Source: a virus
Lineage: Duplodnaviria; Heunggongvirae; Uroviricota; Caudoviricetes
IMG/VR virus record: IMGVR_UViG_2695420871_000010
DNA: 13,814 nucleotides
Direction: 5' to 3' (one strand)
Shown: positions 571 to 10,583 of the stretch, in pieces
Layout: each line of letters begins with the position of its first letter
Numbering within the stretch: the first letter of the stretch is position 1
Made by a program: the position numbers and the translations under genes
Notes under the pieces: generated by a model
What the model was told of the DNA's origin: nothing
The model's input: only the letters and a program-made list of their open reading frames with translations
The model's database searches: none

Positions 571-680
571 GTGTTCGCGGGTGTTCGTGGTAGTGTTTTG
601 TGTGCATTCATCGCTATGATTATAAAGGAAAATTTTGTTTTCCTTGTTCGCTCTTGTTCGTCACGGTTTGCCCTTGTACG
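571..680. promoter_or_regulatory. Helically phased (G)TGTTCG repeats, candidate integrase arm-type / accessory-protein sites (left end)
   Basis: gtgttcg at 571-577 and 581-587, ttgttcg at 644-650 and 654-660, degenerate copies at 593-599 and 673-680; pairs are spaced exactly 10 bp. The same motif recurs at the right end (10527-10556). Confidence 0.5.
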
Positions 681-686
681 ATGCAC

Positions 687-722
687 GGTGTAGTCAATGG
701 TGTAGTCAATGGTGTAGTTAAT
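687..722. repeat. Three tandem 12-bp repeats GGTGTAGT(C/T)AAT just upstream of int
   Basis: ggtgtagtcaat x2 and ggtgtagttaat x1, contiguous; two further copies lie at the right end (10560-10583). Candidate arm-type recombinase binding sites. Confidence 0.55.
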
Positions 723-745
723 TTTGATGACCGGAAACGCGAAAC

Positions 746-1984
746 ATGAGCAGCGCAATTCATAGACTTAGCGACACTCTTTTACGAAAATTAAGCGGAT
801 CACCAACCACAAAAAACGCCTTTTTTAATGACGGTGGCAATCTTAGCGTAAGACATTCCACCAGCGGCCTGTTAACCTGGTATTTCACTTACAGGGCCGG
901 AACTGGCAGGCAGGTATCACCGGAACGCCTGAGACTGGGCAACTATCCCGATCTGAGCCTGAAAGCAGCCAGGGAAAAAGCGGCACAGTGTCGCGCCTGG
1001 CTGGCTGAGGGGAAAAATCCGCGCTATGAGCTTAATCGTGCTGTACAGGATGCGTTAGCCCCCGTGACAGTTAAGGAAGCGCTCACTTACTGGCTTGAAT
1101 CGTATGCAAAGGAAAAGCGCACTGACTACGAATCACTGAAAAGCCGGATCAATAAACACATAATCAGCCAGATTGGCGCTTTGCCGTTGGAAAAATGCGA
1201 GCTACGGCACTGGTTGGCATGTTTTGACCAGATGGCAAAGCGAAGCCCAGTATCTGCCGGATTTTTGCTACAGGTATGCAAACAGGCGCTTAAGTACTGC
1301 CGAAAACGACGATACGCAATCAGCAACGTTCTTGATGATATGGTTGTCGGTGATGTGGGAAAAAAAGCAGAAATAAGCGAGCGCGTACTAACAAACAAGG
1401 AGCTTGGGGAATTACTCCGCGCCCTGGATGAAAAAATTTACCCACCGTACTACAGCGCCCTGATTCGCCTCCTGATTGTCTTCGGATGCCGTGCCACTGA
1501 GCTAAGACGCTCTGAGGTCCAGGAATGGGATTTTAAAGAAATGCTCTGGACCGTGCCGAAAGAACACAGCAAAACGAAGGTAGCAATATTCAGGCCAATA
1601 CCGGAAGCGATCTTGCCGTTCGTAACGAAGCTGGTGGAGCAGAACAGGCACACGGGATTATTGCTCGGAGAACTGAAAGGGCAATCATCCGTATCAGAGT
1701 ACGGAAGAACGGCACACAGACGCATTAATCAAGCCCCCTGGACGTTGCACGACATCCGGCACACGTTTACAACGATGCTGAACGATTTAGGCGTGGATCC
1801 TCATGTAGTGGAGCAGCTAACCGCGCACCAGTTGCCAGGAGTGCAACGAGTCTATAATCACTCCCGTTATCTCGATGCAAAACGTGACGCTCTTAATCTA
1901 TGGGTTGAGCGTCTCGAGCTTCTCCAGAACAATGATGAAAAAATCGTTGTTATGACCCCGCGAATTTACTCCCAAAATTCTTGA
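746..1984 (+). CDS. int: Tyrosine site-specific integrase, P4-like (412 aa)
   Basis: C-terminal catalytic region with ...LHDIRHTFTTMLNDLG... and ...VQRVYNHSRY... (R/H-x-x-R and catalytic Tyr context); N-terminal arm-binding-type domain typical of P4/CP4-57-family integrases; sits next to attL. Confidence 0.9.
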   Translation: MSSAIHRLSDTLLRKLSGSPTTKNAFFNDGGNLSVRHSTSGLLTWYFTYRAGTGRQVSPERLRLGNYPDLSLKAAREKAAQCRAWLAEGKNPRYELNRAVQDALAPVTVKEALTYWLESYAKEKRTDYESLKSRINKHIISQIGALPLEKCELRHWLACFDQMAKRSPVSAGFLLQVCKQALKYCRKRRYAISNVLDDMVVGDVGKKAEISERVLTNKELGELLRALDEKIYPPYYSALIRLLIVFGCRATELRRSEVQEWDFKEMLWTVPKEHSKTKVAIFRPIPEAILPFVTKLVEQNRHTGLLLGELKGQSSVSEYGRTAHRRINQAPWTLHDIRHTFTTMLNDLGVDPHVVEQLTAHQLPGVQRVYNHSRYLDAKRDALNLWVERLELLQNNDEKIVVMTPRIYSQNS

Positions 1985-2028
1985 CAAATTACGGCTGTTT
2001 TTCTTGCGAAAAATGGCCCTCTAAAATA

Positions 2029-2059
2029 AATCGTCGAATATCGGCAAATATCGACGATT
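2029..2059. promoter_or_regulatory. Perfect 9-bp inverted repeat aatcgtcga-N13-tcgacgatt between int and alpA
   Basis: Arms at 2029-2037 and 2051-2059 are exact reverse complements. Could be an operator in the alpA promoter region or a weak terminator for int (no strong T-run follows). Confidence 0.4.
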
Positions 2060-2393
2060 TATATGTGTCAACTATCGAAAAAAATTGAAATGTCTTCTTC
2101 TGAGTTCTTATTCTCTGTTTCTTGATTATTCCAATACCTGATGGTTTATCTATTTGTTTTTAATGAGGTAATTCAGGTGTCATGCCAAATGGCGACATTT
2201 TTTGTTGCGTCGCTTAAAAACTCGTGACACGATTTTAAACACTAACGAGCTTCTACGAACCTTAGCGAACAAAGCCTTTAGCATGGTTGTGTTTTTAATT
2301 TAAGAGGTGAAAAAGAATCTAAGTAATATCCGATCTCATATATCTACAGCTAAGAGAAAAGTTTATATACGTAATTTTTATGTAGGTTTTTGT

Positions 2394-2603
2394 ATGCGTG
2401 AAATAAATGAAGATCGCGTAATCCGTGAGGATGAATGTCGTAAGTTAACTGGAGTGTGCCGCACTACACGTTACGAACTGGAGAAAAAAGGGCGCTTTCC
2501 GTCACGTCTTAATCTGGGCGGTCGTTCTGTAGGGTGGCTGCTGTCCGAGGTTATGGAATGGGTTAAAAGCCGGGATCGCATTAATTCAGGTAAGGCAGTG
2601 TAA
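2394..2603 (+). CDS. alpA: AlpA-family phage transcriptional regulator (69 aa from internal Met)
   Basis: …RVIREDECRKLTGVCRTTRYELEKKGRFPSRLNLGGRSVGWLLSEVMEWVKSR matches the AlpA/MerR-like HTH pattern. The track start at 2307 is a GTG embedded in an RBS-like taagagg with no spacer, so the in-frame ATG at 2394 is preferred; start is uncertain. Confidence 0.7.
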   Translation: MREINEDRVIREDECRKLTGVCRTTRYELEKKGRFPSRLNLGGRSVGWLLSEVMEWVKSRDRINSGKAV

Positions 2604-2948
2604 AGGGGAGCATATGACACATAAAACAAAGGCGACCTGGGGCGGTCGCCAGTTTGGAAACACTAAACATAAGCATGTCAATGATAGCCGCTATCAGGCT
2701 GGTGGGCAATGCTATCAGTCTGTTTCAGTGCGTTGCCATAACTGCGAAGCTCTCTCCTTTGATGAGTATTCTTTAAGGTACTTCTCAAGGGCAAAAGAAC
2801 ACGGCGCGAATCGTTCTGATTCATGCTCTTTCTTTCTGCGTCGTCTTTTTCGTGCAGGTGATGTTTTTTTGGTTGATTCTTCGTTGGTCATTGTGTGCGC
2901 CTGTAAAGCAATGCGCCGGAGTTCCTCACACCACGGCGCTGATAGTGA

Positions 2949-3254
2949 TTATTCTGATTCTTTGGCCTTGCGGCGCTGGAGTTCTTCGCGTGCAACGGTG
3001 ATAAGCTGCCCGATTTCCTCCGCTGCCTTGATGCCGATTTGTTCGACATTAGCTAGGGCATCCAGTGAAGACACAAGGGGATTTTCTCCACTTCCTTCTG
3101 CCTGGCGCCTGGCGATCTCACCGCGTACAGCCGTAACTATAAAATTCGCTTTAGTTTCCCCTGGCTGTAGGGATGCCTCAATGCCACTCACTACTTCATG
3201 TGGAAATCTGGCATTCAGTTGCTGTGACTTATTGTTAACAGAACTCCTGGACAT
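2949..3254 (-). CDS. Small ribbon-helix-helix-like DNA-binding protein, candidate island repressor (101 aa)
   Basis: Internal ATG at 3254-3252 is preceded by a strong RBS (GGGAGGTG, 6-nt spacer); the longer track ORF has no RBS. N-terminus …QQLNARFPHEVVSGIEASLQ… has a beta-strand then helix pattern like Arc/CopG. Divergent from the replication operon, with operator repeats in between. Confidence 0.5.
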   Translation of the reverse strand: MSRSSVNNKSQQLNARFPHEVVSGIEASLQPGETKANFIVTAVRGEIARRQAEGSGENPLVSSLDALANVEQIGIKAAEEIGQLITVAREELQRRKAKESE

Positions 3255-9606: not shown

Positions 9607-9612
9607 CGGGTC

Positions 9613-9695
9613 CTCCTGGTGGGGGGGGCCTGTCCACGGGGCGGGTCGGCGCGGAAAAAAGCGCATTTTTGTGGTTTTATCGTCATCATCATCAT
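9613..9695 (+). promoter_or_regulatory. Conserved element copy B (cos-like; candidate packaging site or late promoter)
   Basis: ctcctggtggggggggcctgtccacggggcgggtcggcgcggaaaaaagcgcatttttgtgg… is a direct repeat of 7084-7170 but differs in the central 12-mer (GGGCGGGTCGGC versus GGGCGGGCGGTT). Confidence 0.45.
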
Positions 9696-9835
9696 GTGTG
9701 TAACCTGTTGTTTTTAATGTGGTTGATGCAAAAAAGATGATGATTGTGGTTAATTTTTGTTCGACATCTTTTAGCGTGACAGATTCTTTACAAAAAATCT
9801 GAGCTTGTTTTCTTAACCAGCGCGATGGGGGCACA

Positions 9836-10117
9836 ATGACAGAAGCCGAAATACTGGGATTAATCCGCCGCGTCGCCGGAATCAGCCAGCAGGTTGACGA
9901 ACAGGCCATGCAACCGGACAGCGTGACCGCTGAAAATTATGCGCGTGTGGTGGATGAGGTAATGCGCCGTGACGGTATTGAGCTTAACGGCGTGGATATG
10001 CGCAACATACGAACCAGAGTTCTTGAGTTGCTGGCATACCGTCGCCGTTCTCAACAACGGAGGGAGAGCGCGAAAAATACTTACCAGTGGAGGAAGCCGG
10101 AGCACTTACGGCGGTAA
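9836..10117 (+). CDS. Hypothetical protein (93 aa), basic C-terminus
   Basis: ATG at 9836 with G-rich RBS (gatggggg) 5 nt upstream; non-repetitive composition; Arg-rich tail (…AYRRRSQQRRESAKNTYQWRKPEHLRR). No family recognised. Confidence 0.45.
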   Translation: MTEAEILGLIRRVAGISQQVDEQAMQPDSVTAENYARVVDEVMRRDGIELNGVDMRNIRTRVLELLAYRRRSQQRRESAKNTYQWRKPEHLRR

Positions 10118-10134
10118 CTGGTTGATATTACCGA

Positions 10135-10400
10135 AAGTGCAAAAATGCACTTAGCAACTGGTGGCGAGTTGCAGATCTGCAACTCGACTATGAAACTACG
10201 GAAACTACCCGTAGTTTGGGTAGTAAGAGTAACACCCAGATTTTGGGGCTTACTCGCGATACCCAAATAAAGGGTATCGGTGGAAGAAATATCGTTTCTC
10301 ATATGTGAGTACCGAGGGCGGAATTCCGCCTTCGGTTACTTATTGTGCGCATGCACAGGGAGGGGCGGGTCAAATCTCTGTACCCTGACGTCTTCCGGAC
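10135..10400 (+). other. Dense cluster of palindromes/hairpins in a non-coding segment (candidate structured RNA or protein-binding DNA site)
   Basis: aagtgca/tgcactt (10135-10152); perfect 22-bp palindrome cgagttgcagatctgcaactcg (10165-10186); overlapping alternative stems actacgg/ccgtagt and actaccc/gggtagt (10195-10224); gataccc/gggtatc (10258-10278); gagggcggaattccgccttc (10314-10333); tgtgc/gcaca (10344-10357). Confidence 0.35.
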
Positions 10401-10526
10401 TGCCAGCCCCATCGATTTTTTATACCCGCGAAAAATGAAAAACGCTTCACGCTGGTGGGCCTGATGCCGATAACTGGTTTCATGACTGATAGCCGGAAAA
10501 TGATAACGATTAAAGCGTGTTGATCT

Positions 10527-10556
10527 TTGTTCGTGGTTGTTCGATATTGTTCGTGG
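10527..10556. promoter_or_regulatory. Three TTGTTCG repeats at exact 10-bp spacing (right-end arm-type sites)
   Basis: ttgttcg at 10527-10533, 10537-10543 and 10547-10553; same motif family as at the left end (571-660). Confidence 0.5.
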
Positions 10557-10559
10557 AAC

Positions 10560-10583
10560 GGTGTAGTTAATGGTGTAGTTAAT
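10560..10583. repeat. Two tandem 12-bp repeats GGTGTAGTTAAT (right end)
   Basis: Identical to the units at 687-722 next to int; followed by ttt as on the left side. Confidence 0.55.

Follow-up and report, generated by a model that had tools for sequence, protein, structure and literature searches.

Two families of co-oriented direct repeats in the attachment-site arms of an EcCICFT073-type phage-inducible chromosomal island

Attachment-site arms of the cspD-clpS island and of described systems

The attP of helper-embedded phage-inducible chromosomal islands (HE-PICIs) carries a doubled motif (tgTGTATTGCan x2), whose two copies share one orientation and were placed 81±2 bp upstream of the attP centre and 132±2 bp downstream of it; integrase arm domains, AlpA or an unknown protein were suggested as its binders, and it was stated to be absent from other phage-inducible chromosomal islands (PICIs) (Tommasini, Mageeney & Williams 2023, PMC10111431). 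The present analysis concerns a stretch of 13,814 nucleotides (IMG/VR record IMGVR_UViG_2695420871_000010, hereafter the window), in which an insert of approximately 10.1 kb (about 550-10672) lies between cspD and clpS with all of its genes on the + strand. The insert is a PICI, a phage satellite, of the EcCICFT073 type, located at the 3' end of yljB. Both of its ends were found to carry two families of short repeats, and comparison with related islands suggests, with a probability of roughly 60%, that these form the arms of attP, 12-mer units serving the integrase and heptamer units AlpA, the functional consequences being inferred.

The attP of phage lambda holds integrase arm sites P1, P2 and P'1-P'3, with Xis sites X1-X2 next to P2, phased sites for a recombination directionality factor (RDF) thus standing by an arm site. 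In KplE1, attL has TorI sites in two blocks together with IntS arm sites over the int promoter (PMC2951348), and RDFs such as Apl of 186 bind direct repeats one helical turn apart, at att sites and at promoters (PMC7498355). AlpA is an activator of its own promoter and triggers int-dependent excision (PMC6092414); in the PICMI satellites AlpA is needed for excision and has a predicted TorI/Xis-like fold (PMC10803314).

The repeat families of the window were designated A (10-bp-phased heptamer units of the TTGTTCG type) and B (12-mer units of the GGTGTAGTYAAT type). Their positions, together with those of the cores and of the two recombination genes, were as follows:

550..567, attL core ATGATAGTTATTTATCAT, imperfect palindrome ATGATAG-TTAT-(T/C)TATCAT, from the alignment of attL, attR and the empty MG1655 attB
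571..587, + strand, core-proximal A pair of the P' arm, GTGTTCG cgg GTGTTCG, 10-bp spacing
644..680, + strand, distal A array of the P' arm, TTGTTCG at 644, TTGTTCG at 654, degenerate CGGTTTG at 664 and TTGTACG at 674, 10-bp phase
687..722, + strand, B repeats of the P' arm, GGTGTAGTCAAT x2 plus GGTGTAGTTAAT, putative integrase arm-type sites, ending 23 bp before the int ATG
746..1984, + strand, tyrosine integrase of 412 amino acids, Arm-DNA-bind_3 N-domain (residues 8-96) and catalytic domain by Pfam
2255..2272, - strand, inverted A pair, minus-strand TTGTTCGctaaGGTTCG, between int and alpA, approximately 120 bp upstream of the alpA start
2394..2603, + strand, alpA, 69 amino acids, Phage_AlpA family, excisionase/transcriptional regulator
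10527..10553, + strand, A array of the P arm, TTGTTCG x3, exact 10-bp spacing
10560..10583, + strand, B doublet of the P arm, GGTGTAGTTAAT x2, 71 bp before the core
10655..10672, attR core ATGATAGTTATCTATCAT, from the same alignment

The 12-mer GGTGTAGTYAAT occurred exactly five times in the whole window, always on the + strand (687, 699, 711, 10560 and 10572); no further match was found in the window at one mismatch or fewer, and a count of five was reached in 0 of 200 shuffles. The A heptamers were GTGTTCG at 571 and 581, TTGTTCG at 644 and 654, and TTGTTCG at 10527, 10537 and 10547. TTGTTCG was enriched in the window (9 copies vs 2.7 expected), and the paired pattern TGTTCG-N4-TGTTCG, with one mismatch allowed, gave 5 matches vs 0.10 expected, which formed four clusters (571-587, 644-660, 10527-10553 and, inverted, 2255-2272). 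A prior sequence-only reading of this DNA had described two repeat families at the two ends, and by both the shuffle and the expected-count tests they are present there far beyond chance; the further inverted pair at 2255-2272, upstream of alpA, had been missed. The same reading had taken the phased repeats of 571-660 as one set, and while the repeats are real they are not a single continuous array, since they consist of one pair and, 63 bp or roughly six helical turns further on, a second. The distal array of the left end runs on in the degenerate units at 664 and 674 as far as the first 12-mer.

The geometry of the two ends was found to differ from that proposed by the sequence-only reading, in which the repeat sets had the same order relative to the island interior and mirrored the P and P' arms. 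All copies lie on the + strand, with A followed by B at both ends, so that A is outermost and B innermost at the left end and the reverse holds at the right end; the sets are co-oriented direct repeats and do not mirror each other across the island. In each arm the final A unit begins 13 bp before B, in the same register, and the segments 654-710 and 10527-10583 form a gapless direct repeat of 57 nt with 75% identity. The triplet of 12-mers in the left arm (687-722) was unique to the window, all other occurrences in the relatives examined being doublets (84/84); the third left-arm 12-mer is a window-specific expansion of 12 bp on the int side.

The proposal that the repeats sit in the P and P' arms of an attP was borne out by the cores at 550-567 and 10655-10672 and by the matching empty attB of MG1655. 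The core comprises 18 bp, ATGATAGTTAT(T/C)TATCAT, is found in attL, attR and the empty attB, and contains inverted core-type sites in common with attB (ATGATAG-TTAT-CTATCAT). The hybrid pattern at the T/C position of the core located the crossover within the shared ATGATAGTTAT. The yljB open reading frame (ORF; 479..553, + strand, annotated in MG1655 and relatives and read here from the sequence) has its TGA stop (551-553) inside the core, and integration therefore keeps yljB intact.

When attP was rebuilt from the two ends, it was observed to consist of TTGTTCG x3, GGTGTAGTTAAT x2, 71 bp, the core, GTGTTCG x2, 56 bp, TTGTTCG x2 with two degenerate units, GGTGTAGTYAAT x2 (here x3), 23 bp and int, or in shorthand A3-B2 - 71 bp - core - A2 - 56 bp - A4-B3 - int, with every unit co-oriented. 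The B doublets thus stand 71 bp ahead of the core on one side and, on the other, 137 bp past its start, which is the kind of constrained placement expected of attP arm repeats. An AT-rich TGATTATAAA-like segment lies between the two A blocks in all lineages, from which no claim of IHF binding is drawn, and the exact IHF consensus WATCARNNNNTTR had no match in either arm. Just past the core on the P' side (568-575, with equivalents in loci L008, L009, L011 and L065) the sequence reads (T/C)TAGTGTT or TTGGTGTT despite unrelated cores, the attB side of the window reading TGTGGAGT at the position right after the core; an extended core-type site of the integrase may reach into the first GTGTTCG unit.

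The same module was found on both arms of related PICIs, in the form of a 12-mer doublet preceded by three or four TTGTTYN units at 10-bp phase. It occurred at cspD-clpS, at roxA-phoQ (including EcCICFT073), at tqsA (strain 042) and at rcnR-thiM, and in addition at a fifth site (metagenome contig L065), while the cores of islands at the other sites were unrelated to that of the window. The modules were conserved with fixed spacing in relatives at four other chromosomal sites. The core-proximal pair at 571-587 was kept in L001-L003, L012 and L064, with allele-specific equivalents in the CFT073-type islands. In all four att-site lineages with an identifiable core the gap from B doublet to B doublet in the rebuilt attP was 208-209 bp, the stretch between doublet and core varying freely in sequence but not in length; in one rcnR-thiM variant (L015 12020-12250) the gap was 198 rather than 208 bp, one helical turn less, in the P' arm. 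The right arm of L033 was considered as a possible recombinant and rejected, as it belongs to the same cspD-clpS site and has a different doublet-to-core spacer of equal length. A search of GTDB species genomes with back-translated integrase peptides returned only two unrelated matches of 25% identity.

These comparisons make it highly improbable that the right-end module is a non-functional relic, either the leftover int-upstream region of an earlier tandem insertion or a similarity kept by gene conversion. The modules are indeed direct repeats of 57-75 bp, approximately 90% identical including the spacer in the rcnR-thiM islands, and tandem PICIs are known (PMC10111431). The module was nevertheless seen in all lineages examined, its distance from the core unchanged; the arms of the window have only motif positions in common and not spacers, and a change of integrase goes with a concerted change of the motif on both arms.

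With respect to the HE-PICIs, both systems have a tandem doublet of 12-bp period in two co-oriented copies, with the left doublet directly upstream of int. The doublets of the window lie 80.5 and 128.5 bp from the attP centre, in the two-doublet placement of the HE-PICIs; the gap between TGTATTGC doublets was 208-211 bp in the HE-PICI loci examined vs 208-209 bp here (208 bp in the window), and the integrases are homologous, those of the HE-PICIs being 37-45% identical to that of the window. The motifs themselves differ, GGTGTAGTYAAT in the window and TGTGTATTGCAN in the HE-PICIs, with GTGTA in common, so that the HE-PICI motif as such was not found; a 10-bp-phased heptamer array precedes each doublet in the window, whereas the HE-PICI right arms are without an obvious one. 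Matching spacing and position, together with homologous integrases, indicate that the B repeats are a sequence-diverged counterpart, in the classical PICI clade, of the HE-PICI motif.

Likenesses to other systems are less complete. As in lambda, the integrase is heterobivalent, with putative arm sites on both sides of the core and phased candidate RDF sites beside them, but the lambda P and P' sites are of opposite orientation and unequal number, whereas the window has two co-oriented doublets, which look like four equivalent half-sites. As in KplE1/HK620, int points inward from attL with its promoter region overlapping the arm (PMC2951348), candidate RDF sites form two blocks with putative arm-type sites nearby and the RDF gene is transcribed separately from int. 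TorI sites have, however, been described on attL only, in contrast to A arrays on both arms of the window; the integrase family and the motifs are different, and binding is experimental in KplE1 and inferred here. Apl (186), Cox (P2) and Vis (P4) resemble the predicted arrangement as small winged-helix proteins acting on one-turn direct repeats at att and promoter (PMC7498355), and AlpA is likewise both an activator and required for excision (PMC6092414). Apl and Cox differ in that they repress, while AlpA activates, and in having their att sites on a single side of the core; the AlpA sites are predicted.

Covariation of the repeats with integrase and AlpA

The sequence-only reading had named the integrase N-terminal domain and AlpA as likely binders, and the pattern among related islands, as far as sequence comparison can indicate, fits both. 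The integrase of the window carries PF13356 (Arm-DNA-bind_3, residues 8-96, E=1.3e-16) and PF00589, while AlpA matches Pfam PF05930 (E=2e-16), PHROG 2790 and the AlpA family structure PDB 8c3t (E=6e-8). The N-domain ...LSVRHSTSGLL... pairs with the B motif GGTGTAGTYAAT; that of strain 042 (...LSVKYLTSGKL..., few changes) pairs with GGTGTAGTCACT on both arms, and that of the rcnR-thiM islands (...LEIKHSKGGKL...) with TGTGTGGTCAGT on both arms, even though the AlpA allele of the latter is that of the window. The B variants have GTGT(A/G) in common (GTGTAGT, GTGTGGT and GTGTATT).

Two AlpA alleles were distinguished, AlpA-1 (…GVCRTTRYE…), present in the window, and AlpA-2 (…GLSRSCRYR…), present in the CFT073-type islands. 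The window and the CFT073-type islands have integrase N-domains that are 79% identical and the same B, but a different AlpA and A units whose last base is G in the former and C in the latter; between the window and the rcnR-thiM islands the N-domains are 61% identical and B differs, but AlpA is the same, as are the TTGTTCG units and their phasing, with different spacer bases. In the arms of ten distinct islands with AlpA-1 (helix V[CS]RTTR), 75 TGTTYG and 0 TGTTYC were counted, compared to 0 TGTTYG and 38 TGTTYC in the arms of ten distinct islands with AlpA-2 (LSR[ST]CR). Across the islands compared, therefore, the sequence of B tracks the lineage of the integrase and not the allele of AlpA, the G or C at the end of A tracks the AlpA allele and not the integrase, and these natural mosaics amount, at the level of sequence, to a double dissociation of A and B. 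Elements that are the same and elements that differ are interspersed along attP (A, B, core, A, B, int, alpA), a pattern that cannot be explained by inheritance of one linked block. An AlpA-based scan of IMG/VR for new AlpA/integrase recombinants returned only known combinations, most contigs starting at int and lacking the arm.

Pairs or arrays of the A type also occur upstream of alpA. In addition to the inverted pair at 2255-2272 of the window, CFT073 (L008 15300-15370, with equivalents in L009, L010 and L014) has six inverted A-type units (GAACAA type) at a phase of 10-11 bp right after the int stop, and the CFT073-type islands have GACACAA repeats just before alpA; both sets lie inside the region whose promoter AlpA activates. 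GTTCG-N5-GTTCG pairs precede alpA in the rcnR-thiM and O157 variants. By the 12-mer search, no B-like sequence was present in the int-alpA region of the window.

Four variant islands (L011 14230-14272, L012 14289-14331, L013 14935-14965 and L015 14505-14537) contain an additional gene, hypothetical or DUF6387, in the int-alpA interval and, directly before the alpA start, a GC-rich hairpin with a T-run, terminator-like in appearance, the arms of which contain GTTCG-N5-GTTCG (in inverted orientation in L015).

On this evidence the B units are probably integrase arm-type sites. It is very unlikely that the 12-mer doublets are instead operators for AlpA or another regulator. The left doublet does stop 23 bp short of the int ATG, where an operator would typically lie, and AlpA or an unknown protein was among the possible binders of the HE-PICI motif (PMC10111431); B is, however, identical across different AlpA alleles and different under the same allele, and the AlpA-activated int-alpA region is without it. 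Moreover, the second doublet stands at the other end of the island, where there is no gene to regulate, and the gap fixed at 208-209 bp around the core is a recombination geometry.

For the A units, recognition by AlpA as excisionase and activator has about an even chance of being correct. One-turn direct repeats adjoining a putative integrase arm site, the arrangement expected of an RDF array, were found at 644-680 and 10527-10553, and from the 10-bp phasing it is reasonable to expect binding on one face of the helix. Two other identities were rejected for the repeats: replication iterons, as those of the origin are a different motif at 6084-6260, and host-factor sites, as the motif varies with the island's own AlpA allele. 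That both families are integrase arm-type sites (strong B, weaker A), with AlpA binding elsewhere or acting on transcription only, is unlikely, though less so than the operator explanation. Lambda-type integrase arm sites are themselves phased at approximately 10 bp, and A and B each start with (G/T)TGT; AlpA was also without effect on Pint in EcCICFT073, although an A array adjoins int (PMC6092414). Yet A stays TTGTTCG in the rcnR-thiM islands despite only 61% N-domain identity and a different B, it changes in the CFT073-type islands despite 79% identity and the same B, and A-type pairs recur upstream of alpA in a region without any B-like motif.

We propose a mechanism in which the motif-protein assignments and all consequences of binding are read from the observed anatomy, conservation, fixed spacing, covariation and attP junctions (the last described below). 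Four B units would act as arm-type sites for the N-terminal Arm-DNA-bind_3 domains of an integrase tetramer, which would bridge the arms to the palindromic core. The A units would be sites of AlpA, a winged-helix excisionase and activator of the Xis/TorI/Apl type, which may polymerise on one helix face beside the integrase arm sites, bending or stiffening both arms during excision and so shaping attL and attR, while binding to related sites upstream of alpA would account for auto-activation. With 23 bp between the end of the left module and the int ATG, occupancy of the module would probably down-regulate int (autoregulation); a sigma-70 scan of 400-2700 predicted no + strand promoter between the core and int. 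More tentatively, and with the balance slightly against it, AlpA might read one 10-bp-phased heptamer code in three places: beside the doublet on both arms, beside the core and before alpA.

Several observations weigh against the assignment of A to AlpA. Only two AlpA alleles underlie the association, with some five arm lineages among which roxA and tqsA have almost the same arms, so that few observations are independent, and the difference in A between the alleles is a single base (G or C). The int-alpA arrays of the CFT073-type islands mix heptamers (17 G-type vs 26 C-type in ten islands), and position 7 may therefore not determine specificity. Both arms, P and P', carry A arrays, in place of the one-arm arrangement of RDF sites that is classical for lambda and KplE1, and A is not universal, no obvious A array being seen in the HE-PICI right arms examined. 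Finally, Pint-lacZ was left unchanged by AlpA in EcCICFT073 (PMC6092414), and GTGT is common to A and B, such that one protein could recognise both.

Evidence of activity and other features of the island

An attP junction of precisely the sequence predicted (P arm - ATAAATGATAGTTAT-T-TATCA - P' arm) was present in two independent metagenome contigs of close relatives, L027 (IMGVR_UViG_3300019373_000108, 1-231), whose integrase is 97% identical to that of the window, and L275 (OOBX01002772.1). Such a junction is an excised circle or a tandem array; with just 11 bp of core in common, it is unlikely to be an assembly chimera. In L027, attP stands at one end and attR with clpS at the other, which makes this contig either a tandem or a mixture of circle and integrated forms. 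Of five further matches to the junction pattern, four were rejected as chance matches in AT-rich DNA, namely three out of the four metagenome loci and an additional locus of IMG/VR. The sequence-only reading had described the recombination system as functional and recently active; int and alpA are full length and the cores intact, and the junctions support an active system in the family, but nothing is specific to the copy in the window.

The island has the gene order of EcCICFT073, the prototype of the Gram-negative PICIs, being syntenic with the island of CFT073, and Pfam and synteny showed the organisation of the Gram-negative PICIs, with a unidirectional int-alpA-(variable zone)-DUF4222-primase-origin-ssb-late gene order, approximately 10 kb and a dedicated chromosomal site. 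Islands 92-93% identical occupy the cspD-clpS site in several complete E. coli genomes, and the integrases of islands sharing this site are 94-97% identical to that of the window. The remaining features were as follows:

105-329, - strand, CspD gene
between alpA and the DUF4222 gene, variable zone
3972-4271, + strand, DUF4222 protein
4253-6058, + strand, D5-type primase
6084-6260, GGTGAACAGT iterons, direct and inverted, dense, just downstream of the primase gene
6615-7037, + strand, SSB
7697-9577, + strand, ClpP-protease/major-capsid fusion, a single ORF of 626 amino acids
9836-10117, + strand, conserved protein of 93 amino acids
10757, clpS start; 11093, clpA start

The iteron zone is presumably the replication origin of the island, and contains an exact match to the IHF consensus at 6137-6149. 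The ORF of 626 amino acids (7697-9577) joins a ClpP-like prohead protease to an HK97-type major capsid protein, and the island is without portal or terminase genes, unlike capsid-forming PICIs such as L014. A direct repeat of 129 nt (71% identity) occurs just downstream of ssb (7052-7180) and just downstream of the capsid gene (9582-9710); each copy has a stretch 82-86% complementary to int codons 20-27 (805-826), which may be due to chance. Between the last ORF and the P arm (10160-10345), a series of perfect short hairpins was observed (GTTGCAGATCTGCAAC, ACTACGG…CCGTAGT, GATACCC…GGGTATC and ACCGAGGGCGGAATTCCGCCTTCGGT), which is also present in L010, matched no Rfam family and could be a packaging (cos) region or terminators. 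The Rfam scan of the whole window returned CRISPR repeats only, corresponding to three 28-nt repeats with 60-bp spacing (GTTCACTGCCGTACAGGCAGCTTAGAAA; Rfam CRISPR-DR4) at 13599-13734, downstream of clpA, where an array begins at the right edge of the window.

Significance for the biology of the PICIs

PICIs are widespread satellites that mobilise virulence and defence genes, and work is under way to engineer them as delivery vehicles; for the classical E. coli group, the prototype EcCICFT073 included, no map of the cis parts of the attachment site existed. The analysis gives a map of a minimal attP of approximately 330 bp from the first P-arm unit to int. Arm sites are an expected kind of feature of attP, mapped here in more detail than before for this group, and their description overturns nothing; it does extend the doublet architecture, thought by its authors to be restricted to the helper-embedded PICIs, to the classical PICIs, with a doublet spacing of 208-209 bp that is conserved and common to a distant integrase clade, and adds to that architecture a second, AlpA-linked motif family. 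The natural specificity variants (three B types and two A types) make the question of the binders directly testable by swaps. If AlpA does read a single heptamer code at the arms, the core and its own promoter region, one helper-induced burst of AlpA would start transcription and build a symmetric two-arm excisive intasome together, and allele-specific heptamers (…G or …C) would stop co-resident PICIs from cross-exciting each other.

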